The notes: generated from the letters alone by a model not told the origin. A stretch of DNA of 43,608 nt from an uncultured Methanosarcinales archaeon (GCA_964562045.1 CAZLRR010000001.1:762-44369), one strand, 5' to 3'; numbered from the stretch's first letter, positions 1,312 through 34,168 are shown. Numbers and translations are program-made.

Positions 1312-1383
1312 GGCGGGGTGGCCAAGTGGCTAAGGCAACAGGCTGCAACCCTGTGATCGTGGGTTCAAATCCCACCCTCGCCT
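1312..1383 (+). tRNA. tRNA-Cys(GCA), no intron, CCA not encoded
   Basis: Acceptor GGCGGGG/CCTCGCC; anticodon arm ACAGG-CTGCAAC-CCTGT; T arm GTGGG-TTCAAAT-CCCAC. Confidence 0.96.
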
Positions 1384-1481
1384 TTTTATTTATAAATTCT
1401 CAAACAAGTTGGATTTGAACTTTAGTTCCTTTGGTGCCAAGAATCTTTTGATTGTTGAGCACAAATCCCACCCTCGCCTTT
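1366..1481 (+). repeat. tRNA-Cys 3'-end direct repeat enclosing a small palindromic cassette (core B)
   Basis: CAAATCCCACCCTCGCCTTT at 1366-1385 and 1462-1481; internal 1428-1461 matches reverse complement of 26984-27016. Confidence 0.9.
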
Positions 1482-18670: not shown

Positions 18671-21289
18671 ATGTATGATATTATTTTGGGTAGAACTCAG
18701 TCTGATCAGAAAAAATATGGAAAGAAAGGAACAGTTATGATAGGAAAACAGTATGTTCAGATGGGGCAGAATTTCTCGCTTTCAAACCCGATTTATATGG
18801 ATGTCTCTAGAGCACATGCAATGCTAATTTGTGGAAAAAGAGGTGGTGGTAAATGCCTTAGCGAAAATTCTGAAATTATTTTAAATGACGGAAGTATAAA
18901 AAAAATTACAGAACTTGAAAAGAATAATAAAAAGATTTTATCTTTAAACCCCAATTACAAAATTGAAGAAAAAGAAAAAACACAATTCTATAAAAGAAAG
19001 GTTAAAGAATTATTAAAACTAAAACTTGATTCTGGAAAAGAATTAGAATTAACTCCAGAACATCCCCTATTAACAATAAATAGTTGGAAAGAAACTAAAG
19101 AACTAAATGTTGGAGATAGGATTGCAACTCCAAGAAAAATTCCCGTTAATGGTAAAACTCCAATTGGAACAGCAAAAGCAAAAATACTAGGATATTTACT
19201 TGCAGAAGGACACCTAGGAAACAATTTTGTATTATTTTCTAACCAAGACAAAGCCATAGTTAGTGACTTTCTAGAATCTATCCAAAATTTTGATAAATCA
19301 CTAATAGTAAAAGAACATGGAAAGTTCAACTATAGAATAATTCAGAACAATAAAAGATATAATGTTTTAACCAGAAATAAAAAAGGCCAAATACTTGATT
19401 CAAAAACATTAAATTGTAAATCTACCTTAAGAAATTGGTTAGAAGAATTAAAAATATATAATACTAGGTCATACACCAAATTTATTCCTGAATGTATTTT
19501 TACTGCACCAAATTCCGAGATAAAAGAATTCTTGAAAACAATGTTTAGTTGTGATGGGTCAATATATCATAAAAAATCAAACAATTACCAAATAGCAATA
19601 ACTTTAGTTTCTAAAGAAATGATAAAACAAATTTCTCACTTGCTACTTAGATTTGGAATAATATCAAAATACAAAGAAAGAAAAATAAAATATAATGGCA
19701 ATTATAATCTTGCATATGAATTAAAAATAGATGGAGTTTTTGTTGAAAAATATGTTGAAAAAATTGGATTTGTGGGAGAAAAAGAAAAAAAAGCAGAAAT
19801 TGTATTTGAATTACAAAAAAAATTAAATAGAAATCCAAACAAAGATACAATTCCAAAAGAAATTTGGCAGAGATATCAACCCATAAAAACTTGGACAGAA
19901 ATTGGAAAAGAAATGAAATATAAACACCCCAAAGCCCTAAGAGAATCAACAAGATATTCTCCCTCCAGAGAAAAATTAAACAAAATAGCAATGATTGATA
20001 ATTGTCAAGAAATACAAAACCTTGCAAATTCAGACCTTTATTGGGATTCTATTGTTTCAATTGATAAAATGGTTGGAAATTTTGATGTTTATGACCTAAC
20101 CTGTCCCGACTATAATAACTTTGTTGCAAATGACATTGTTGTACATAATTCATACACTATGGGTTCTATTGCTGAGGGTTTGGCCGACATGGACCCAGAA
20201 ATTGCTAAAAATCTTGCGTTTATGATGCTTGATACGATGGGAGTTTATTGGTCAATGAAGTACCCAAATAATAAAGAAGAGGCACTCCTTAAAAAATGGG
20301 GATTAGAAGGTAAAGGTTTAGGAGTTCAGATTTATGTTCCAGGAGGTTTTTTTGAAAAATATAAAGAGGATGGAGTTCCAGTAGATTTTCCGTTTTTTAT
20401 TCAGCCAAGAGAATTACAAATAGAAGATTGGATGAATGCTTTTAAATTACACACTGATGATGCTGTAGGGGTTGCAGTTCAGAGGGTTGTTAATAGTTTG
20501 CTTGTTAGAGAAAAAAATTTTGATCTTGATGATGTTATTAAAGAAACTGAGGAAGATTCAAGACTTGACGAGAAAACTAAACTAGCCGTCATTAGTCGTT
20601 TTGAAAATGCTAAAACTTGGGGGATCTTTTCTAAGAATGGAACTCCGATTAAAGATATTTTTACGGGAGGAAAAGTAACCGTTATGGATTTATCCCCCTA
20701 CGTTGCAATGCCTGGAGGTTGGGAGGTTAAAGCTTTAGCACTTGGAATTATTGCAAAAAAGATTTTTGTTGAGAGAATGCTTGTTAGAAAGCGTGAAGAG
20801 CTTTTTGATATTGTAAATAAAACCGAAGTTGTGAGAAAAGAAGAGGTCGAGAATGATTTGCCTATGCCTTGGCTTGTAGTTGATGAAGCGCATGAATTTC
20901 TGCCTACAGGAGATGAAGAAGCTCCATCAAAAAAAGCGCTTATGACAATTTTAAGGGAAGGACGACAGCCCGGAGTTTCATTAATTTTGGCTACACAACA
21001 ACCTGCAAAAATCCACACAGATGCAATTACTCAATCAGATATTGTTTTATCTCATAGATTAACTGCAGAGTTTGATCTTCAAGCATTAGATAAAGTTTTC
21101 ATGTCATATAATTCAAAAGGTTCAAAAGCGCTTTTTAACGCAATGCCAAGAACAAAAGGTTGTGCAATTATTATGGACGATAAGAATGAGAGACTTCACA
21201 CTATGCAAGTAAAACCAAGATTCACATGGCACGGAGGAGAGGATCCAAATGCAATAAGAGAAATAAAAGATGAATTTGATTTTGATTGA
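18671..21289 (+). CDS. HerA/DUF87-family ATPase containing an intein
   Basis: Walker A ICGKRGGGK|S split by intein; Walker B VVDEAHEF; REGRQPGVSLILATQQP. Confidence 0.9.
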   Translation: MYDIILGRTQSDQKKYGKKGTVMIGKQYVQMGQNFSLSNPIYMDVSRAHAMLICGKRGGGKCLSENSEIILNDGSIKKITELEKNNKKILSLNPNYKIEEKEKTQFYKRKVKELLKLKLDSGKELELTPEHPLLTINSWKETKELNVGDRIATPRKIPVNGKTPIGTAKAKILGYLLAEGHLGNNFVLFSNQDKAIVSDFLESIQNFDKSLIVKEHGKFNYRIIQNNKRYNVLTRNKKGQILDSKTLNCKSTLRNWLEELKIYNTRSYTKFIPECIFTAPNSEIKEFLKTMFSCDGSIYHKKSNNYQIAITLVSKEMIKQISHLLLRFGIISKYKERKIKYNGNYNLAYELKIDGVFVEKYVEKIGFVGEKEKKAEIVFELQKKLNRNPNKDTIPKEIWQRYQPIKTWTEIGKEMKYKHPKALRESTRYSPSREKLNKIAMIDNCQEIQNLANSDLYWDSIVSIDKMVGNFDVYDLTCPDYNNFVANDIVVHNSYTMGSIAEGLADMDPEIAKNLAFMMLDTMGVYWSMKYPNNKEEALLKKWGLEGKGLGVQIYVPGGFFEKYKEDGVPVDFPFFIQPRELQIEDWMNAFKLHTDDAVGVAVQRVVNSLLVREKNFDLDDVIKETEEDSRLDEKTKLAVISRFENAKTWGIFSKNGTPIKDIFTGGKVTVMDLSPYVAMPGGWEVKALALGIIAKKIFVERMLVRKREELFDIVNKTEVVRKEEVENDLPMPWLVVDEAHEFLPTGDEEAPSKKALMTILREGRQPGVSLILATQQPAKIHTDAITQSDIVLSHRLTAEFDLQALDKVFMSYNSKGSKALFNAMPRTKGCAIIMDDKNERLHTMQVKPRFTWHGGEDPNAIREIKDEFDFD
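18854..20149 (+). mobile_element. Intein (432 aa) with LAGLIDADG homing endonuclease
   Basis: Starts CLSENSEI; block B LTPEHPLL; ILGYLLAEG and FLKTMFSCDGS; ends VYDLT...NFVANDIVVHN followed by Ser. Confidence 0.95.
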
Positions 21290-26969: not shown

Positions 26970-27263
26970 TGAGGCCGCAAAGATGCGCAACAATCATAGA
27001 TTCTTGGCACCAAAGGTTTGAAAAATCCTTGCTACTTCAAAAAAATCAAATGAATTTCAAAGAAATGAGGCCGCAAGGATTTGAAAGTTTGTGAGCGTGC
27101 GAAACAAACCGCCAGAAATCTTTGATTTCTCTTGCTCTTTTGAGCTTTGCGAAAAAGTGTTCCGAACGAGAAAATCGAAGATTTTAGAGTGACCGAACCT
27201 GAAAGGGTGAAAATCCTGAAGGACGAATTTTTGTTAGAAAAAATGAGGCCGCAAGGATTTGAA
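26970..27263 (-). repeat. tRNA-Trp-linked array: tRNA 3' end plus two downstream copies, separated by palindromic cassettes (cores A and B)
   Basis: AAATGAGGCCGCAAGGATTTGAA at 27241-27263 and 27063-27085; degenerate TGAGGCCGCAAAGAT at 26970-26984. Confidence 0.92.
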
Positions 27264-27316
27264 CCCTGATCTGCTGGTCTGGAGCCAGCCATTCTGCCAG
27301 ATTATACTACAGCCCC
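27244..27316 (-). tRNA. tRNA-Trp(CCA), intronless
   Basis: Reverse complement GGGGCTG...CGGCCTC-A; anticodon arm GCTGG-CTCCAGA-CCAGC; T arm CAGGG-TTCAAAT-CCTTG. Confidence 0.95.
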
Positions 27317-27366
27317 AATAAAGGATAATAAAAAAAGTGCGCAAGTATTTTTAAATATTGCTGAAA

Positions 27367-27984
27367 TTAGTCCATATCATCAACATCTAAGTCATCAACT
27401 TCATCAATCTCTTTTTTTTCAACAATTTTTCTATTCGCTTCAAATCTCCTCTTACGATTAGAATCATATTTCTTTTTAGCAGCTAAAATTTCCCTGATAT
27501 AAATTCTACCCATTGATTCTTCATCAATATCAAGTTTGTCAATATATTCTTCAACTTTTTCATAATTATCACTTTCAATTTCCAAAAGAGGATCAAGTCC
27601 AGGGTATTCATCAATATCAAAAGTTACATCATTAAGCCTATATTCTGTTCGATATTTTGACAATTCAAAAATTTTTATATATCCAAGTTCATTTAAAATT
27701 CTCTTCATTGTATAAAGATTAGATATTTTAACTCCGATTTCATCTCTTCCAGTAATATTTTCAATAGATTTCTTTTTACCCTTAACATTCAGAAACACAT
27801 ATTTTCCTTTCTGACGAATCCTAAGTGCTTTTCCAAGTCTAGATAAATCTCTGTCGGGAGTATCAAACCTATAATCCACAACACGCCCAGTAAAAATTTT
27901 TTTGGCGCCCAACTTTTCAATTTTTTCAATAGTACTTTTTTTATCAATATTTTTTATCTTTACTTCAACTTCTTTCATTTTCAT
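27367..27984 (-). CDS. CYTH domain protein (class IV adenylate cyclase-like)
   Basis: EVEVK motif; ALRIR; KYRTEY; DIDEYPGL..LLEIE. Confidence 0.9.
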   Translation of the reverse strand: MKMKEVEVKIKNIDKKSTIEKIEKLGAKKIFTGRVVDYRFDTPDRDLSRLGKALRIRQKGKYVFLNVKGKKKSIENITGRDEIGVKISNLYTMKRILNELGYIKIFELSKYRTEYRLNDVTFDIDEYPGLDPLLEIESDNYEKVEEYIDKLDIDEESMGRIYIREILAAKKKYDSNRKRRFEANRKIVEKKEIDEVDDLDVDDMD

Positions 27985-28876
27985 CTCGAGTAATTATACT
28001 CTTTTCTCCATCTTTAAAGACAACAGTATGCTCAAACTGACTAATTATACTGCCATCCTCACTTACCAACATATCATATTCGTAAATGATCTTATTTAAC
28101 TTAAGGGTTCTCAAAGCATATAAAACTTTCCTTTTATCAAACTCTTTCAAAAGCCACCTTTTTGAAAAAGGCAAGTGGGGAAAATGTTCTTTGATATAAT
28201 CAAGCACTTTTTTTGCTACAATATCTCGAACTTGTTTATTATTTACAAGATGCAAAATATTTGAGGGACCACCACTTTTAACTCTTGTAGTTCCGGTTGA
28301 AAAAAACGGCTCGATTGCAATTTCTGCGGTCTGCGGAATTTGAGTAGAATCAGTATTATCAAAATTTGGGATGCTTAAACCTGCATGTAAATCATTTTTT
28401 GATATCTGATGCCCCGAAAGATTGTGTATTGTATTAAATCCTGCATCTTTTGCAATCTTGTCTGCAATAGCGCCAATTTTAGAAACTTCAATCCCCGACT
28501 GGATTGCTTCCAATTCCTCATTTAGAGCTTTTTCATTTGATTCTAGAAGAGTTTTATATTTGTTTGTACCAATTTCTATTGTAAAAGCATTATCAGTGAT
28601 ATTTCCGTCCTTTGAAACACCAAAATCAACTTTTACTACATCTCCTTTTTTGAGAATAATTTCTTCGTCAAATATAGTAAAATGCGCAGCCTGATTATTT
28701 ATACAAACTGTTGCGGGAAAAGCAGGCAAATATCCAGCATCAAAAATTTTATTTTCCATAAATTCAACAATTTCCAACGCACTAATGCCTTCTTTTATTA
28801 TTGATTTTACTTCGTCTCTCAAATCTGAAGTAAAAGTTCCCAGTTTCTTTAAAATTTCAAGCTCAAGCTCGCACAT
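27965..28876 (-). CDS. map: Methionine aminopeptidase type II
   Basis: PAFP...N..AAHFT; KVDFGV..DG.I.DNAFT; NLSGH; AIEPF; SQFEHTV. Confidence 0.96.
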   Translation of the reverse strand: MCELELEILKKLGTFTSDLRDEVKSIIKEGISALEIVEFMENKIFDAGYLPAFPATVCINNQAAHFTIFDEEIILKKGDVVKVDFGVSKDGNITDNAFTIEIGTNKYKTLLESNEKALNEELEAIQSGIEVSKIGAIADKIAKDAGFNTIHNLSGHQISKNDLHAGLSIPNFDNTDSTQIPQTAEIAIEPFFSTGTTRVKSGGPSNILHLVNNKQVRDIVAKKVLDYIKEHFPHLPFSKRWLLKEFDKRKVLYALRTLKLNKIIYEYDMLVSEDGSIISQFEHTVVFKDGEKSIITRDENERS

Positions 28877-28910
28877 AAAAATAGAAATACTTTATAATTT
28901 ATAAATAAAA

Positions 28911-29882
28911 CTAATCTTTCTTGAATTTAGAAAGTTTTTCTCCAAGATAGATTTTATTTACTTTTCCTACACGAATCCTACTTAAGAATCGCTTTCCATG
29001 AAGTTTTGTTATGATTTTACTCAAATTTGATTTACTTAATTGAGGAAGAAAATTCAAAATATCATACTGAGAAATTCCCTCATTTTCCAAAACAACCATT
29101 ACAACTTCTTGTTCGTTTTCAGTTAAGAATTTTTCAATAACCTCTTCAAAAGTTTGATCTTCTAAAATTGTTTCAGGGTCTGTGTTTTTTTCTTCTTTTT
29201 CTTGAGCCAATGTATTTAACGCCGATTCTTTTTTATTCGGAGTCCGTGCTAAAGGCTTTTTTCTGAAAAACAAATAAAAAATTACTCCTACAAGTATTAA
29301 AACTGCACCAATAAGTACAGGGAGGATAACATAAAAATTTGAATCTGTAGTGTCTCTAGAACTAAATTGGATTAGAAAAAATGAATCTTCTTTAGGGTTA
29401 GCTATTTTCCATGAAATTTCTCCATTTTCAGAGATTACGTAATTTCTAGGAAAAATTTCTTCGATTTCACCAAAATCATCTATAAGTAAAACTGAAAATT
29501 CCAGAGTTTCAATAGGAATATTATAATTTTGATAAATTGAAAACGCAGATTTCCCTACAATTTCCCGAGATAAATCAAATGATTGGTATGTAATATCAAA
29601 TGAACGATTCGCAGTTTCTTCAGGTTTTATGATAAAAAAATCTCCCGCAGAGGAATATTCTATTTCTTTATTACTAGATTTTTCTTTGGCAGACACAATA
29701 AATGAACCTTTTGGCTTTTCAAAAGAAAAAGTTTTATAATTTTCATCTTCTGAAAAAGAGATTGTCATGTTAAATGTTGCAACATTTTCTAAAACTTGAG
29801 TGTCAATATTAATAGTTACTGCAAATGAAGTACTTAATAATAAAATTAATGAAAAAACAAATACGCCAAATTTATTAAACAT
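28911..29882 (-). CDS. Membrane protein with extracellular domain and C-terminal winged HTH
   Basis: Signal peptide from MFNKFGV; TM helix; LTENEQ...GISQ...LSKSNLSKII..L...RVGKVNKI wHTH. The longer ORF start overlaps uppS and was not used. Confidence 0.8.
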   Translation of the reverse strand: MFNKFGVFVFSLILLLSTSFAVTINIDTQVLENVATFNMTISFSEDENYKTFSFEKPKGSFIVSAKEKSSNKEIEYSSAGDFFIIKPEETANRSFDITYQSFDLSREIVGKSAFSIYQNYNIPIETLEFSVLLIDDFGEIEEIFPRNYVISENGEISWKIANPKEDSFFLIQFSSRDTTDSNFYVILPVLIGAVLILVGVIFYLFFRKKPLARTPNKKESALNTLAQEKEEKNTDPETILEDQTFEEVIEKFLTENEQEVVMVVLENEGISQYDILNFLPQLSKSNLSKIITKLHGKRFLSRIRVGKVNKIYLGEKLSKFKKD

Positions 29883-29933
29883 AAAATTATATAATTGGAG
29901 AAATTTATAAAGTTTTGGTAAATCTATAGAGTT

Positions 29934-30638
29934 ATGGAACATATTGGATATATTATGGATGGTAATCGAAGATATGCGCAGAAACAAAAAATAACACTTA
30001 AAGAAGCTTACTATAAAGCAGTTAAAACCTTTTTTGAGATACTTGAAATTCATTTGAAAGAAAAAATTCCGCATGCCACATTTTATGCCCTTTCTACTCA
30101 GAATTATAAAAATAGAGACAAAAACCAGCTTTTAGAGACAATAAGTTTTATCGAAGAATTTTTTAATAATGAAGATGTTGAAGAAGCTTTAATTGAAAAT
30201 AAAATAAAGGTTATTTTACATGGAAACTTTGAGAAACTCTCAAAAACAAAAGGGACCTCAACCAAAATTCCCAAGAAAGAGTTACTAAATAAAATTAAGA
30301 AGTTTGAAAGTATTGAAAATCCTAGTTTAACTGTGCATGTGGCAATAAATTATGGGGGAAGAGAAGAAATCATTGAGGCAGTAAAATTATTGTTAAAAGA
30401 AAACCCAAAAAATATAACCGAGAAAGATTTTGAAAGGCATTTACAGTTTTATGGAGTTCCTGAGCCAGAGATGATAATTCGTACAGGAAAATGTCAAAGA
30501 CTTTCTAATTTCTTAACTTGGCAGTCTATTTATAGTGAATTGTATTTTTGTCCGAAATTATGGCCAGAATTTGGAAAAGCTGACCTTATTGAAGCTTTAA
30601 TGTGGTTTAAAGAGCAAAAAAGAAATTTTGGCAAATAA
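29934..30638 (+). CDS. uppS: Polyprenyl (undecaprenyl) diphosphate synthase
   Basis: HIGYIMDGNRRYA; YALSTQN; AINYGGREEI; IIRTG..RLSNFL.WQ..YSE; RNFGK. Confidence 0.95.
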   Translation: MEHIGYIMDGNRRYAQKQKITLKEAYYKAVKTFFEILEIHLKEKIPHATFYALSTQNYKNRDKNQLLETISFIEEFFNNEDVEEALIENKIKVILHGNFEKLSKTKGTSTKIPKKELLNKIKKFESIENPSLTVHVAINYGGREEIIEAVKLLLKENPKNITEKDFERHLQFYGVPEPEMIIRTGKCQRLSNFLTWQSIYSELYFCPKLWPEFGKADLIEALMWFKEQKRNFGK

Positions 30639-30653
30639 AATTAGTTTAATAGT

Positions 30654-30974
30654 TTAAAAATATTGATTTAATAATTCTTCAACCCTTGATGTATCCTTTC
30701 CACTACCAACTAGCGCTTGTTTTATTGAATCTCTAGAGTATTTGAATTTATATTGTTGAATGTAGTTAATAATGTCAGTGTCTTGGGGGTTTGATTGTTG
30801 TGGGGTTGCTCCGGAGGCGGAATTCGAGGACATTGAATCTCCACCCATTCCACCAAGTAGGTCCATTTCTCTTTTCTTCTTTAACATTTTTTTCTGAATT
30901 AAAAAACCTCCCACTAAAATTACTGCTGCTGCCCCCAGTATGATTAGTAATTTTTGTAATTCGGAAACTGCCAT
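30654..30974 (-). CDS. Small membrane-anchored hypothetical protein
   Basis: N-terminal TM helix, G/S/Q-rich linker, C-terminal helical motif. Confidence 0.7.
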   Translation of the reverse strand: MAVSELQKLLIILGAAAVILVGGFLIQKKMLKKKREMDLLGGMGGDSMSSNSASGATPQQSNPQDTDIINYIQQYKFKYSRDSIKQALVGSGKDTSRVEELLNQYF

Positions 30975-30975
30975 T

Positions 30976-32019
30976 TTATTTCCTCGCAATTAACTTTATT
31001 ACTTCAATCATCCTATTTGAAAAACCCCATTCATTGTCATACCAAATAACGAGTTTTACTAAATTATCATCAACAACTGCAGTAGAGAGTCCATCAACAA
31101 TTCCTGAGTGAGGGTTTCCAACAATATCTGAGGAAACAAGTTCTTCTTCGCTATATTCAATAATACCATTTAAATGATTTTGAGATATTTCTTTTAAAAA
31201 TGTATTAATTTCTTCTTTAGTTACTTTTTTATTTAGTTCAAGATTTAAATCCGTTACACTTCCAGTAGGGGTTGGTACTCTATAGGCAATACCGTGAAGT
31301 TTTCCTTCAAGTTCTGGAATTAATTTGATTACGGATTTTGCTGCCCCAGTCGTAGTGGGCGTAATGTTAAATGGTGCAGCTCTTCCTCTTCTAGGGTCTT
31401 TATGAAATGCATCTAAAATTCTTTGATCACCAGTTACAGAATGAACTGTTGAAAACATTCCTTTTTTAATACCGTATTTTTTATGAAGTTCGTTAACTAT
31501 TGCGGTCATTGAATTTGTTGTACAAGAACCATTTGAAACTACTTGCTCTCCATTATAATCCTCATCATTAACTCCACGAACTAGATAGAAACAATCTCCT
31601 TTTCCTGGCGCAGAAATTAAAACCTTCTTAGCTCCATTTTTAAGATGAATCTCTGTCTGTTCTCGATTTGTAAAAATTCCAGTACATTCTGCAACAACAT
31701 CAATTTTGTTGTCTCCCCAAGGCAGTTTGTTAATATCTTTTTCTTGGATAACTTTAACTTTTTTATCGCCAATAACTAAAAAATCACCTTCTACCTTTAT
31801 GTCTTGAGGAAATTTTCCTTGACTTGAATCGTATTTGAGAAAATACCTACAGGCATCCGGTCCGCCCAAATCATTTATCATTACAAATTCAATATTTGGG
31901 TCGTTAAAACCTGCCCTGAAAATCATTCTTCCAATCCTTCCGAAACCATTAATTGCAACACGTACTTTTTTGTTTGAAGAGATTTCGCCTTTAATTTCAT
32001 TTAACATGTGTTCTTCCAT
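30976..32019 (-). CDS. gap: Glyceraldehyde-3-phosphate dehydrogenase, class I (bacterial type)
   Basis: VAINGFGRIGR; ECTG.F; SNGSCTTN; PTTTGAAK; WYDNEWGFSNR. Confidence 0.96.
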   Translation of the reverse strand: MEEHMLNEIKGEISSNKKVRVAINGFGRIGRMIFRAGFNDPNIEFVMINDLGGPDACRYFLKYDSSQGKFPQDIKVEGDFLVIGDKKVKVIQEKDINKLPWGDNKIDVVAECTGIFTNREQTEIHLKNGAKKVLISAPGKGDCFYLVRGVNDEDYNGEQVVSNGSCTTNSMTAIVNELHKKYGIKKGMFSTVHSVTGDQRILDAFHKDPRRGRAAPFNITPTTTGAAKSVIKLIPELEGKLHGIAYRVPTPTGSVTDLNLELNKKVTKEEINTFLKEISQNHLNGIIEYSEEELVSSDIVGNPHSGIVDGLSTAVVDDNLVKLVIWYDNEWGFSNRMIEVIKLIARK

Positions 32020-32080
32020 AATTTTTCTATAACACTTTAGAGTTTAAAGATTTAGTATCTTTTATTAGTGATTATTTGTA

Positions 32081-33487
32081 TTATTTGTTTAAGGAATTAA
32101 TATATAATTTTAATTTTTTGAGTTCAGTGTCAACAATTTCTTTTGTTTTTCCTTCACTAACTATTCTAATTATTGGCTCAGTATTTGATTTGCGAATAAC
32201 GCACCAGAAATTACCAAAGTCGAGAGAGATTCCATCAAGTTTTGAGGAGATTTTAGATTCATATTTTTTTTCAATATCTTTTAATATGAAGTTTGGATTT
32301 TGAACTTCTAAAGTTAAATCTTTTCCTTTTGCAAAATATTTGTATTTTGAAAAAATTTGTGAAAATTGTATGTTTTCATCTTTAATTAAATTTTGTGCAA
32401 CTATTTTTAACATATAGATTAATCCAATGTCGGGATTGTCAAGATAATTAAATTCCTTAAAGAAAAGATGTCCTGATTTTTCTGCACCAAATCCACATTT
32501 AATTTTTTCCATAAATGAGTGATAGTGACTTCTTCCAACTTTTATTCTTGTGATTTTGACTTTGTTTTGTTTGGCAATTAAATCAACTGCTTTTGAAACG
32601 GTTAAATCAATTGCAAAGTGGTTTAACTTTTTTGAGAAGAAATCTATATAAGAACATATAGTGTAATCGTTAAGAATTTGGATATTGTTTTTATCATAGA
32701 AAAGGATTCTGTCGCCATCACCATCAAATACTGCGGTGAAAAAGTTTTTGGTTAGGTGTCTTTTTTGAAGGAATTTTGTAGCAGAGGTGGGGTCTGGAGT
32801 ATGGTTTGGAAAGTTTCCGTCTGGATTTGAATTTAAATCTGTGAAATTTAAGCCAATATTTTTTAAAACTTCTTTGTTTGCAAGAGAAGAGACTCCACTT
32901 GAGAAATCTATTGCAAAACTGATTTTTTTTAGAGTTTTTATTTCTTTTCGAGAGAGAATTTTTTTGTATTTTTTCTTTAAGTATTTTTGATAATCTTTTA
33001 TGGGAGATTGAAGTTTGATTTTTTTTATATCTAAAACTTCTTGTAGAGAGATTTTATCAAGTTCGGGTTTGAAAATTTTGTATTCCATCTCTTTTTCATC
33101 TAAGTCAAGTTCTGAGAAATGTTGAAGTTTTTTAAGTCCTGTGTCAAAATCATAAGATTTTCCATCTTTCATGAATTTAAATCCATTGTATTCTTTTGGA
33201 TTGTGGGATGCTGTAATCATTATTCCATCTTTTGGTCCTGAAAAAAGAGAGAAATAAAAGTTTGGCGTGGATAGTTTTCCGAGATAGATTATTTTTGTAT
33301 GCGCATCAAGAGCTCCTTTTATGAAATATTTAGTTAAAACCGGCTGAGAAAGCCTGGAATCGTGTCCAATTTTGATTTTTTTTAGTCCGTTAATTTTTAC
33401 AAAATAGTATCCGAGTTTGTATGCCTGTAAGTCTGTTAATTCTTTTCCATAAATTCCTCTGATATCGTATGCATGAAATATACCCAT
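32081..33487 (-). CDS. Phosphomannomutase/phosphoglucomutase
   Basis: FHAYDIRG; ITASHNP; FDGDGDR; GAEKSGH; RKSNTEP. Confidence 0.94.
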   Translation of the reverse strand: MGIFHAYDIRGIYGKELTDLQAYKLGYYFVKINGLKKIKIGHDSRLSQPVLTKYFIKGALDAHTKIIYLGKLSTPNFYFSLFSGPKDGIMITASHNPKEYNGFKFMKDGKSYDFDTGLKKLQHFSELDLDEKEMEYKIFKPELDKISLQEVLDIKKIKLQSPIKDYQKYLKKKYKKILSRKEIKTLKKISFAIDFSSGVSSLANKEVLKNIGLNFTDLNSNPDGNFPNHTPDPTSATKFLQKRHLTKNFFTAVFDGDGDRILFYDKNNIQILNDYTICSYIDFFSKKLNHFAIDLTVSKAVDLIAKQNKVKITRIKVGRSHYHSFMEKIKCGFGAEKSGHLFFKEFNYLDNPDIGLIYMLKIVAQNLIKDENIQFSQIFSKYKYFAKGKDLTLEVQNPNFILKDIEKKYESKISSKLDGISLDFGNFWCVIRKSNTEPIIRIVSEGKTKEIVDTELKKLKLYINSLNK

Positions 33488-33544
33488 AATTAGTTTTTGG
33501 ATATGTTGTTTTTAAAATTTAATAATTACTTAAGTGAAAAAATC

Positions 33545-33730
33545 GGCTCTGTCCGGAAATTGACAAGACCTATTTTTTAGTCTAAATTTAGGAAGAAACT
33601 CTTTGAATTCAAAGTGTCCCGAACGAATAAAATGAGTGACCGCATTTTTAACTGAAAGCTAAAAATTTGGGAGGTTTGGGGAAAATCAATTTTCTAAAAA
33701 ATAGGTTTGTTTTATATTCCGGATAGGGCC
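33545..33730. mobile_element. MITE, IS1595-family-like, with 8-bp target site duplication
   Basis: TIRs GGCTCTGTCCGGAA / TTCCGGATAGGGCC (12/14) plus inner IR; AAAAAATC at 33537-33544 and 33731-33738. Confidence 0.82.
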
Positions 33731-33740
33731 AAAAAATCAG

Positions 33741-33754
33741 AAACTTTATAAAAA
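33741..33754 (+). promoter_or_regulatory. Probable BRE/TATA promoter of tRNA-His
   Basis: AAACTTTATAAAAA about 30-40 bp upstream of the tRNA. Confidence 0.45.
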
Positions 33755-33784
33755 AAATTGTATTATTTATAGTTATTCTAGCAT

Positions 33785-33859
33785 GACCGAGTTAGTGTAA
33801 TCTGGTTAGCACAGAGGATTGTGGTTCCTCTAGTTCGGGTTCAAATCCCGGGCTCGGTC
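33785..33859 (+). tRNA. tRNA-His(GTG) with encoded G-1
   Basis: G-ACCGAGT...GCTCGGT-C; anticodon arm GAGGA-TTGTGGT-TCCTC; T arm TCGGG-TTCAAAT-CCCGG. Confidence 0.95.
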
Positions 33860-34168
33860 CTTATAATTTTATACCTTGCCGAGATTTTCACCCTGCTAAA
33901 GCAGGTTCGGTCACTCCAAAATCTTCGATTTTCTCGTTCGGAACACTTCTACACTTCGTTGCGAAGAGTTTCAAATCCCGGGCTCGGTCCTTATAATTTT
34001 ATACCTTGCCGAGATTTTCACCCTGCTAAAGCAGGTTCGGTCACTCCAAAATCTTCGATTTTCTCGTTCGGAACACTTCTACACTTCGCTATGAAGAGCA
34101 AGAGAAATCACAGATTTCTGGCGGTTTGTTTCGCAAGCTCACAAACTTTCAAATCCTGAGCCCGGGCT
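33840..34168 (+). repeat. tRNA-His-linked tandem array (130-bp period) of tRNA 3' end + palindromic core A
   Basis: 33840-33958 repeated at 33970-34088; third degenerate end TTCAAATCCTGAGCCCGGGC at 34148; 34013-34157 matches reverse complement of 27076-27215. Confidence 0.93.

Follow-up and report, generated by a model that had tools for sequence, protein, structure and literature searches.

What kind of DNA can settle behind a tRNA gene, carry no gene of its own in some one hundred base pairs, and end in a copy of whichever tRNA precedes it? The question is raised by a 43,608-nucleotide stretch of archaeal DNA (GCA_964562045.1, CAZLRR010000001.1:762-44369), called the window below, in which each tRNA gene is followed by one or two short hairpin-rich cassettes. 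tRNA genes are classic landing pads of mobile DNA, and the elements known to settle there are kilobases long and encode an integrase themselves. The original prediction for this locus proposed a family of small cassettes docked at tRNA T-loops. Our analysis confirmed the tRNA-linked family itself and brought out what had been overlooked, namely an inverted copy of the T-arm inside the cassettes, cassettes at tRNA 5′ ends and a spread across the order. The anatomy and evolutionary dynamics of the cassettes are established. As to their nature, we favor, with roughly evenly balanced confidence, the reading that they are a lineage-wide, gene-less and non-autonomous form of selfish DNA residing in the T-loop-to-3′-end segment of Woesearchaeota-type tRNA genes. 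The tRNA stays whole because both sides of the cassette bear, as a direct repeat, the stretch that runs from the T-loop to a few bases past the 3′ end.

ARAGORN and Rfam agree on exactly three tRNA genes within the window, for Cys, Trp and His. Direct reading showed the described layout at all three: in tRNA orientation, the gene is followed by a spacer rich in T and a core rich in hairpins, after which the 3′ end of that same tRNA recurs as a copy. The inverted (antisense) copy of the tRNA T-loop/T-arm inside the cassettes is referred to as antiT. The features, in window coordinates, are as follows.

1312..1383, + strand: tRNA-Cys(GCA), intact target (ARAGORN; Rfam RF00005, 65.4 bits)
1384-1462, + strand: single Cys cassette (sequence)
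1384..1410, + strand: T-rich spacer of the Cys cassette, starting with TTTT and including TTTATAAA (sequence)
1411..1428, + strand: Cys antiT GGATTTGAAC with TTTA and GTTC, a small hairpin (sequence, RNAfold, antiT comparison)
1434..1462, + strand: core B hairpin 2 of the Cys cassette, GTGCCAAGAATC-TTTT-GATTGTTGAGCAC (RNAfold, RNAalifold)
1463..1479, + strand: direct-repeat copy of the Cys 3′ end, AAATCCCACCCTCGCCT, with a T-run after it (BLAST, 18/18 identity)
27243..27317, − strand: tRNA-Trp(CCA), intact target (ARAGORN, Rfam)
27086..27242, − strand: Trp cassette 1, made up of a spacer, a degenerate antiT AGGATTTTCACCC and core A (modules A1 and A2)
27065..27085, − strand: direct-repeat copy 1 of the Trp 3′ end, TTCAAATCCTTGCGGCCTCAT (BLAST, 21/21)
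26982..27064, − strand: Trp cassette 2, made up of a spacer, GGATTTTTCAAACC and core B hairpin 2 (sequence)
26970..26981, − strand: copy 2 of the Trp 3′ end, TTTGCGGCCTCA, acceptor strand only (offset 262, 1 mismatch)
33786..33860, + strand: tRNA-His(GTG), intact target (ARAGORN, Rfam)
33861..33969, + strand: His cassette 1, a spacer and a short core A with module A1 only (sequence, BLAST)
33970..33990, + strand: full direct-repeat copy of the His 3′ end, TTCAAATCCCGGGCTCGGTCC (BLAST, 21/21)
33991..34147, + strand: His cassette 2, a spacer and a long core A with A1 and A2 (sequence, BLAST)
34148..34168, + strand: outermost partial His copy, the T-loop TTCAAATCC (34148-34156), then TGAGCCCGGGC and a T-run (sequence)

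Some boundaries given earlier had to be redrawn. The Cys copy had been described as starting at TTCAAATCC, but its true start is (C)AAATCC (window 1462/1463-1479); RNAfold indicates that GGATTT of the Cys antiT is able to pair with AAATCC of this tail copy in a stem, P1. Behind tRNA-Trp, cores A and B were both present as described, but their correct extents are those of two cassettes, 27086-27242 and 26982-27064, each with a tail. At tRNA-His there is a short unit with a full tail, and the long unit ends in a T-loop only: the TGAGCCCGGGC after the last T-loop, with its palindrome GCCCGGGC, is not a His acceptor strand or tail. Around the palindrome CCCGGG it contains a portion of the His tail in reverse complement. 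The His units are tandem, since the repeat runs on for 98 nt into the next unit. The sharing of cores between tRNAs was borne out, with 87-90% identity over 126-145 nt between the core A copies of Trp and His (BLAST) and an exact 19-mer plus the same hairpin common to the core B copies of Cys and Trp. BLAST also aligned Trp core A to the His copy and to copies on the contigs C70, C15 and C19 (C-numbers are contigs of G000, the genome holding the window; other G-numbers are other genomes, and L-numbers are fetched loci).

We characterized the direct repeat at 36 cassette-bearing tRNAs, of which 9 belong to G000, 4 to G004, 2 to G012 and 21 to further genomes of the order. The repeat boundary fell inside the T-loop in 26/36, at A58 in 12, C56 in 7, T54 in 6 and A57 in 1, in keeping with the proposed docking at the T-loop; the remaining 10/36 repeats started 3-4 nt earlier or 5-9 nt later. 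The left boundary differed by family, from T54 to the T-stem, and in non-tandem cases the repeat ended 0-13 nt beyond the tRNA, mostly in the T-run. The flanking duplication was variable, at 11-30 nt. Insert lengths were 56-157 nt in the 36 cases, with no intermediate sizes. Regeneration of the tRNA's own 3′ end, as claimed originally, holds insofar as tails match the local tRNA, but several outer copies (the third His, Met, Ile, Glu and Ser-gga) are truncated or mutated. In the Glu, Ser-GGA and Ser-GCT tail copies we found mutations; of the copies at Met, Ile and the outer His position, only the part that pairs with antiT is left. Because of these truncated or mutated outer copies, the tail copies are best seen as decaying duplications rather than maintained parts; because the outer copies are mutated or cut down to the antiT-pairing part, the acceptor part seems neutral and the pairing part kept.

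Between tail copies, a unit consists of a spacer, which opens with a T-run in nearly all cases, an antiT and 1-3 hairpins. A typical antiT comprises T-stem 5′ bases and ATTTGAAC, the reverse complement of GTTCAAAT with the T-stem 3′ bases. RNAfold predicts that the unit is closed by a stem of antiT with the T-loop/T-stem 3′ strand of the tail copy, leaving the acceptor 3′ strand single-stranded. Terminal inverted repeats, as in miniature inverted-repeat transposable elements (MITEs), are present in that the left-end antiT pairs with the right-end T-loop/T-stem 3′ strand. Among 36 tRNAs of 30 order loci, an antiT lay within 90 nt in 29 and an 11-nt tail copy was found in 20, with both in 17. 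The fit of antiT to its own T-arm averaged 10.9 of 13 over 50 tRNA/antiT pairs, compared to 10.28 ± 0.09 in permuted pairs, and 0 of 2000 permutations reached it; the pairs include non-independent relatives and at least one convergent tRNA pair (L316). The clearest case is tRNA-Cys of G003, whose T-loop variant TTCAATT is echoed by both the antiT GGGAATTGAAC and the tail AATTCCC. In G000, the Arg (GGAGATTTGAACTCC) and Leu antiT sequences each fit their own unusual T-stem better than any other.

The last core B hairpin, hairpin 2, has the form GTGC-CAAGAATC-loop-GATTGTTG-A-GCAC. In an RNAalifold analysis of 9 cassettes from 4 genera and 3 families, it had 11 consensus pairs, of which 4 had changed on both sides, and a one-base bulge was conserved across the 9 cassettes. 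On this comparative sequence evidence, the structure of hairpin 2 is under constraint. Folding showed no strand preference over the 36 cassettes, 17 being more stable in the sense and 19 in the antisense direction (Wilcoxon p=0.99). Core A folded at -47.1 kcal/mol (z -2.1) antisense to the tRNA and at -32.8 kcal/mol (z -0.2) in the sense direction.

The G000 assembly comprises 1,061,510 bp in 73 contigs (30.5% GC) and is 92% complete. Since TFIIB, GatE and TYW2-type proteins are encoded (profile scan, 18/50 open reading frames [ORFs] of at least 100 aa), the host is an archaeon. Its TFIIB is 87-94% identical to TFIIB of Candidatus Woesearchaeota or Nanoarchaeota, and judged by its sequence the genome is that of a small, Woesearchaeota-type archaeon. 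The Rfam RF00005 model detects 33 tRNAs in it and ARAGORN 30. A 12-nt tail copy with at most 1 mismatch lay within 1.2 kb downstream of 8 of the 30 ARAGORN tRNAs (Cys, Trp, His, Leu-TAG, Arg-TCT, Glu-CTC, Met on C19, and Gln-TTG), several of which had two copies; this frequency is far above chance. Reading of the flanks revealed further cassettes at Ser-GCT, Ile-GAT (with a diverged core A) and Ile-TAT. At 3 more Ser tRNAs the contig stops inside a cassette that continues at the end of another contig; these joins, C1 end to C2 start (at least 3 tandem units), C25 end to C28 end and C39 end to C70 start, are deduced rather than assembled. A core B cassette also lies within a partial tRNA-Phe copy, 2.5 kb from tRNA-Phe. 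Counting contig-end joins and diverged cases, ∼15/33 tRNAs bear cassettes. The public sequencing data consist of short-read contigs, which break inside the cassette repeats, so tandem copy numbers are assembly figures, and N gaps occur inside 2 arrays elsewhere in G000.

Every BLAST match to core A or B at E<0.01 lay beside a tRNA or at a contig end that continues a tRNA locus, and the generic hairpin ATC-nnn-GAT was not enriched genome-wide (133 observed vs 133-148 in shuffles). Because of these two results, the cores are not scattered through the genome independently of tRNAs, and the restriction to tRNA genes claimed for them holds. Cores of 60-140 nt behind different tRNAs of G000 were 87-97% identical (BLAST). 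As had been noted, the same core carries different tails, each of which fits whichever tRNA precedes it.

Mirror-image cassettes were found upstream of 4 tRNAs of G000. In each, the first 14-27 nt of the tRNA are duplicated ahead of a hairpin-rich insert, and the intact tRNA comes next; the positions are these.

C6:37440-37533: 5′ cassette of tRNA-Phe
C8:18976-19070: 5′ cassette of tRNA-Gln(CTG)
C10:25888-26085: 5′ cassette of tRNA-Met
C22:832-975: 5′ cassette of tRNA-Gln(TTG)

The 5′ cassettes of Phe and Gln-CTG have the hairpin GGTGCATCTWCGATAGCAC in common, immediately before the tRNA, and that of Met is made up of two identical 99-nt units. The cassette downstream of tRNA-Gln(TTG), at C22:643-758 on the − strand, is a partial tRNA-Gln copy that runs from the D-loop to TTCGAA and contains a 53-nt insert in its T-loop. 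The sequence TTTCGAAGTGYTAACGA opens this insert and also occurs in the Leu-TAG cassette at C1:44525-44665, just past the end of the window.

We investigated the spread of the architecture with the pattern GTTCRAATCC-N30-60-GGATTYGAAC, using the same pattern reversed as a control. Among 401 order genomes, the pattern occurred in 55 and the reversed control in 0 (the sample includes G350, flagged unpublished). In a second sample of 301 high-quality genomes, it was found in 39/218 of the same order vs 2/83 from sister orders of the class, again with 0 for the reversed control, and at least 1 of the 2 sister-order matches is a convergent tRNA pair. Viral contigs yielded 32 loci with the pattern, mostly coding sequence or convergent tRNAs, and the full architecture was present only in L304 and L315 (GC 0.46 and 0.59), which have a T-loop with tail, spacer, antiT, short core and tail copy. 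Because these viral contigs show the same layout, the architecture may not be wholly confined to the order. Searches of viral contigs with two core motifs gave chance or coding matches only. A 16-mer of core B matched at least 117 loci in metagenome contigs, with the hairpin in none among the matches listed.

Within the genus, cassettes are gained, lost and replaced. Only 2 of 34 tRNAs in the single-contig genome G012 and 4 of 30 in G004 bear them. Cassettes follow tRNA-Cys in 10/17 genus genomes, every tail fitting that species' own tRNA, and comprise core B with the antiT hairpin, core B without it, core A, A+B and tandem pairs. For tRNA-Trp the figure was 4/12 genomes, and G006 and G019 are cassette-free despite a tRNA-Trp identical to that of G000. 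Presence, type and copy number thus differ at the same tRNA between species of one genus, as gain and loss would have it.

Searches for an enzyme extended to all of G000 the earlier remark that no cognate enzyme is visible. TnpB remained below its cut-off (PF07282, best match 22.4 bits vs 26.3), the HUH Y1/RAYT family (PF01797) gave no match at E≤0.1, reverse transcriptase (PF00078) was not found in this 92% complete genome, and nothing above cut-off was obtained for serine recombinase/resolvase or IS110. Of the enzyme classes whose co-occurrence with cassettes had been proposed for study, HUH/RAYT and reverse transcriptase were accordingly not found in G000, and tyrosine recombinases were present. 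G000 encodes three of them, of 271-357 aa. The first is a XerA-like gene on C5 with a 66% identical orthologue in G012; the second, a Xer-like gene on C69, is 37% identical to the C5 gene and has no orthologue in the cassette-poor G012; the third is a 357-aa integrase on C51, a 4.2-kb plasmid- or virus-like contig. Homologues of the Xer-like C69 gene occur in 115/151 order genomes (a sample that includes G150 and G130, flagged unpublished), with a copy number that does not follow that of cassette matches. On C69 (2481 bp) and in L096-L106, Xer-like genes often lie 100-500 nt from contig ends. The inverted repeat AACAYCTATTA...TAATAGRTGTT precedes C69-type Xer-like genes and marks the exact break point of contigs in two genomes. 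This C69-type family may represent a separate recombination platform.

Around the cassette-bearing tRNAs of the order loci there are 127 ORFs of at least 110 aa, 78 of which were scanned. No integrase, transposase or other mobile-element domain was detected in any of the 78, and the identifiable neighbors are housekeeping genes. With Rfam 15, the cassette loci matched only tRNA at the gathering score, and at E≤10 there were only scattered chance matches far below cut-offs. The inserts contain no ORF. Lacking both a gene and a match in Rfam, the cassettes bear out the original interpretation on this point. Of known types of element, G000 holds a classic integrated one of 2.2 kb at tRNA-Gln(CTG) (C8:16642-18975), with a perfect 43-nt repeat from the anticodon loop to the 3′ end. 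Its truncated, integrase-like ORF of 217 aa starts inside the tRNA in the style of an SSV-type "suicidal" integrase. The attR of this element shows no cassette features, and its repeat differs from those of the cassettes. A 2.6-kb island lies downstream of tRNA-Phe (C6:37610-40210) and encodes an ATPase-like protein of 403 aa and a 212-aa protein, a pair that resembles, by eye, AAA-ATPase/RloB-type defense pairs. On its far side the island ends in an incomplete copy of tRNA-Phe, in which a core B cassette takes the place of the T-loop. Elsewhere in the window, an 872-aa ORF (18671-21289, + strand) contains an intein that carries a LAGLIDADG homing-endonuclease domain (Pfam Intein_splicing 4.6e-27, LAGLIDADG_3 4.1e-18) within a P-loop ATPase that has a weak Zot-like match.

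Selfish DNA has to be weighed against other explanations of these cassettes. They might be a host-useful structured RNA (or DNA) module on tRNA genes, e.g., a trailer-derived small RNA of which the tail copy is a functional part; its T-arm-like stem and free acceptor 3′ strand would then contact tRNA-processing enzymes or the tRNA 5′ strand. The compensatory changes and one-base bulge of hairpin 2 in 4 genera of 3 families speak for such a module, as do the conservation of the architecture across an order, the RNAfold closing stem of antiT and T-loop with its single-stranded acceptor strand, and the invariant orientation of the cassettes relative to the tRNA. We nonetheless regard it as unlikely: species differ in the presence, type and copy number of cassettes at a given tRNA, tail copies are mutated or truncated, folding is without strand preference and even better antisense for core A, and there is no Rfam match. 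A T-run is an archaeal terminator signal, and since nearly every spacer opens with one, cotranscription of the cassette with its tRNA is doubtful. Selfish DNA fits better than a host RNA gene because of the single position in the tRNA, the duplication that restores the gene, the small size and the shared cores, and further because pairing rather than sequence is conserved, gain, loss and replacement are fast, and units are amplified in tandem. The cassettes could also be scars of plasmids or viruses of a single family that were integrated by a tyrosine integrase at the T-loop, their attP sites being specific for different tRNAs, and then lost their interior, leaving the att-proximal arms. Identity blocks from the T-loop to the 3′ end, which count for this explanation, were reportedly recognized by Williams in 2002 as the signature of one class of tRNA-targeting integrases. 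G000 itself holds both the classic 2.2-kb tRNA-Gln(CTG) element and the 2.6-kb tRNA-Phe island ending in a core B cassette, and integration leaves partial tRNA copies in archaea, as with the 9-23-kb elements of Thermococcaceae (PMC9897764). Set against this are the tight insert sizes of 56-157 bp, without intermediates in 36 cases, and the absence of integrase or mobile-element domains from all 78 scanned neighbor ORFs. In 3 loci, a stretch of 13-20 kb contained no distant attR, and searches of viral contigs with two core motifs turned up no cassette. The repeat of the Gln element begins in the anticodon loop, and the attR of this element lacks cassette features. Scars, which would vary in size and adjoin mobile-element genes, are thus a poorer fit than selfish DNA, and we hold this origin to be quite improbable.

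A different possibility is that replication or repair at the quasi-palindromic T-arm gave rise to the cassettes as non-mobile by-products, formed locally at each tRNA by fold-back or template switch and slippage and resembling each other by convergence or gene conversion. Inverted and direct T-arm copies do look like fold-back products, the minimal form L304 contains hardly more than spacer, antiT and tail, the repeat ends are variable and the enzyme searches were negative. However, cores of 60-140 nt are 87-97% identical behind different tRNAs and the core B motif occurs in three families, and this weakens the explanation because local by-products would not share sequence unrelated to tRNA; we give it a low probability. 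The sequence data point instead to shared descent of the cores found at different tRNAs. Finally, the cassettes could be artifacts in the assembly of a fragmented metagenome-assembled genome, given its 73 contigs, the N gaps in two arrays and the contig ends inside cassettes. This is scarcely credible: the tRNA-His/first-unit and Trp core B/core A junctions recurred in short-read contigs of 3 runs with 0-2 differences (the assembly itself may derive from two of these runs), and the same architecture is present in the single-contig G012 and in 55 order genomes. Other candidate identities were tried and set aside. A guide RNA, i.e., a scaffold with a tRNA-matching guide, was dropped, since the tail repeats the tRNA in sense orientation and an effector was not found; no C/D-box or K-turn boxes were seen by eye; and a bulge-helix-bulge intron or split tRNA was rejected because the junctions, by inspection only, form part of a continuous helix or three-way junction, and all 33 tRNAs are end-to-end matches to RF00005.

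Several observations weigh against selfish DNA and were considered with it. No autonomous relative was found, and 3 tRNAs with an antiT only had no distant tail copy within 13-20 kb. Xer-like genes show no apparent co-occurrence with cassettes, G061 having 3 pattern matches and no Xer-like match at 1e-20. A double-stranded circle of ∼100 bp is a sterically unlikely recombinase substrate. The conservation of core B across three families would fit a host function as well. The own-tRNA signal of antiT comes partly from few loci, because its T-stem-specific part often matches only 2-3 G's. In the Cys and Trp comparisons, empty and filled sites could not be aligned as pairs between species because the intergenic flanks are too diverged, and movement was not observed. 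Public short-read contigs, which in 4 runs break at the cassettes, provided no reliable excision joint; a 106-nt "skip" joint within the Trp array was distrusted, as it has only 30 letters on one side.

If the cassettes are selfish DNA, as we favor, they spread as units, as we infer, and their anatomy suggests how. The antiT and the repeated T-loop/T-stem would make each unit a hairpin bounded by inverted repeats, of which a single strand, once folded, would equal the duplex of the tRNA gene's T-arm. By one route, a recombinase supplied in trans would act on the dyad-symmetric T-arm or, by analogy with integron attC and CTX-phage attP, its folded mimic; candidates in G000 are the XerA-like protein, the second Xer-like protein and the plasmid-type integrase. 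By another, copy-choice template switching between tRNA loci would proceed at the microhomologies offered by the shared T-loop and the T-run and would need no dedicated enzyme. This second route could explain both the variable repeat ends and the tails that automatically match their target, and we consider these two routes about equally likely. A third route, similar to that of short interspersed nuclear elements (SINEs) on the opposite strand, would rest on the T-loop box and an A-rich end beside the variable duplication, and is disfavored because reverse transcriptase was not found. By whichever route units arrive, their number would grow or contract in tandem via slippage or unequal exchange between the direct repeats. 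A more specific form of the proposal, modeled on other folded-strand systems, is a single-stranded "target mimic," in which folded antiT and T-loop would let a Xer-type recombinase of host or plasmid origin, or the replication machinery, paste a gene-less hairpin of ∼100 nt into any tRNA gene. We think this rather improbable; if true, the target mimic would be the smallest known site-specific mobile element and an archaeal analogue of integron attC/CTX attP chemistry, with the universally conserved T-loop serving as docking site.

The cassettes combine traits of several known systems. Like tRNA-targeting elements with tyrosine integrases (archaeal SSV/pNOB8/pTN3-type elements and bacterial islands), they have a direct repeat that starts in the T-loop, leave the tRNA intact, accrete in tandem at one tRNA and keep a fixed orientation. 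Unlike those elements, they measure 56-157 bp rather than kilobases, carry no integrase or any gene and have none nearby, show one core with many tRNA tails, contain an antiT and have a variable left boundary. With MITEs, REP/BIME and PATE they share being small, gene-less, palindromic, multicopy, bounded by inverted repeats and probably dependent on functions in trans. They differ in lying only behind or in front of tRNAs rather than being dispersed, and from MITEs also in a duplication that is variable (11-30 nt) rather than fixed and short and in having as one "terminal inverted repeat" the target's own T-loop. RAYT/Y1, TnpB, IS110 and serine recombinase, none of them above cut-off in G000, set them apart from MITE/REP systems as well, a comparison in which DDE families were not searched. 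With TnpB below cut-off and TnpA (PF01797) without a match, they are also unlike IS200/IS605 omega/reRNA guides or PATE. Folded single-strand sites, such as integron attC and the attP of CTX phage used by XerCD, resemble the cassettes in keeping structure over sequence, in an imperfect hairpin with a bulge, in tandem arrays at one docking site and, by analogy, in a folded strand that would mimic the chromosomal target duplex. In contrast to those sites, there are no cassette ORFs and no folding strand bias, and use of a folded strand is pure conjecture here; no integron integrase is apparent, the 3 tyrosine recombinases of G000 measuring 271-357 aa. Read on the opposite strand, the cassettes recall tRNA-related SINEs in their B-box-like T-loop, A-rich tail beside the duplication and variable duplication lengths, but no reverse transcriptase was found in G000, the unit does not look like a tRNA-derived transcript and insertion is at one tRNA position only.

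In the full-text literature searched, a coverage outside which subscription journals and supplements fall, we found no description of gene-less, T-arm-mimicking cassettes of ∼100 bp. A model for Caldiarchaeum links element integration to tRNA disruption (PMC3293823). Tandem integration features in a review on the tyrosine recombinases of archaea, and a term search of its accessible text returned nothing on miniature or remnant elements (PMC8371274). The cassettes represent a clade-wide variant of tRNA-targeted insertion elements that is apparently undescribed.

The landing pad known from kilobase-sized elements is filled here by gene-less hairpins of ∼100 bp, at up to half of the tRNAs of a 1-Mb genome and across an order of ultra-small archaea. 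In practice, assemblies break at these tRNA loci, and annotation pipelines may miscall the partial tRNA copies. If the cassettes move, they would be a minimal tRNA-targeted element and a tractable system for the recognition of the T-loop at the DNA level. If they do not, they would reveal a recurrent instability of tRNA genes that bears on the origin of tRNA fragments, T-loop introns and split tRNAs in Archaea.

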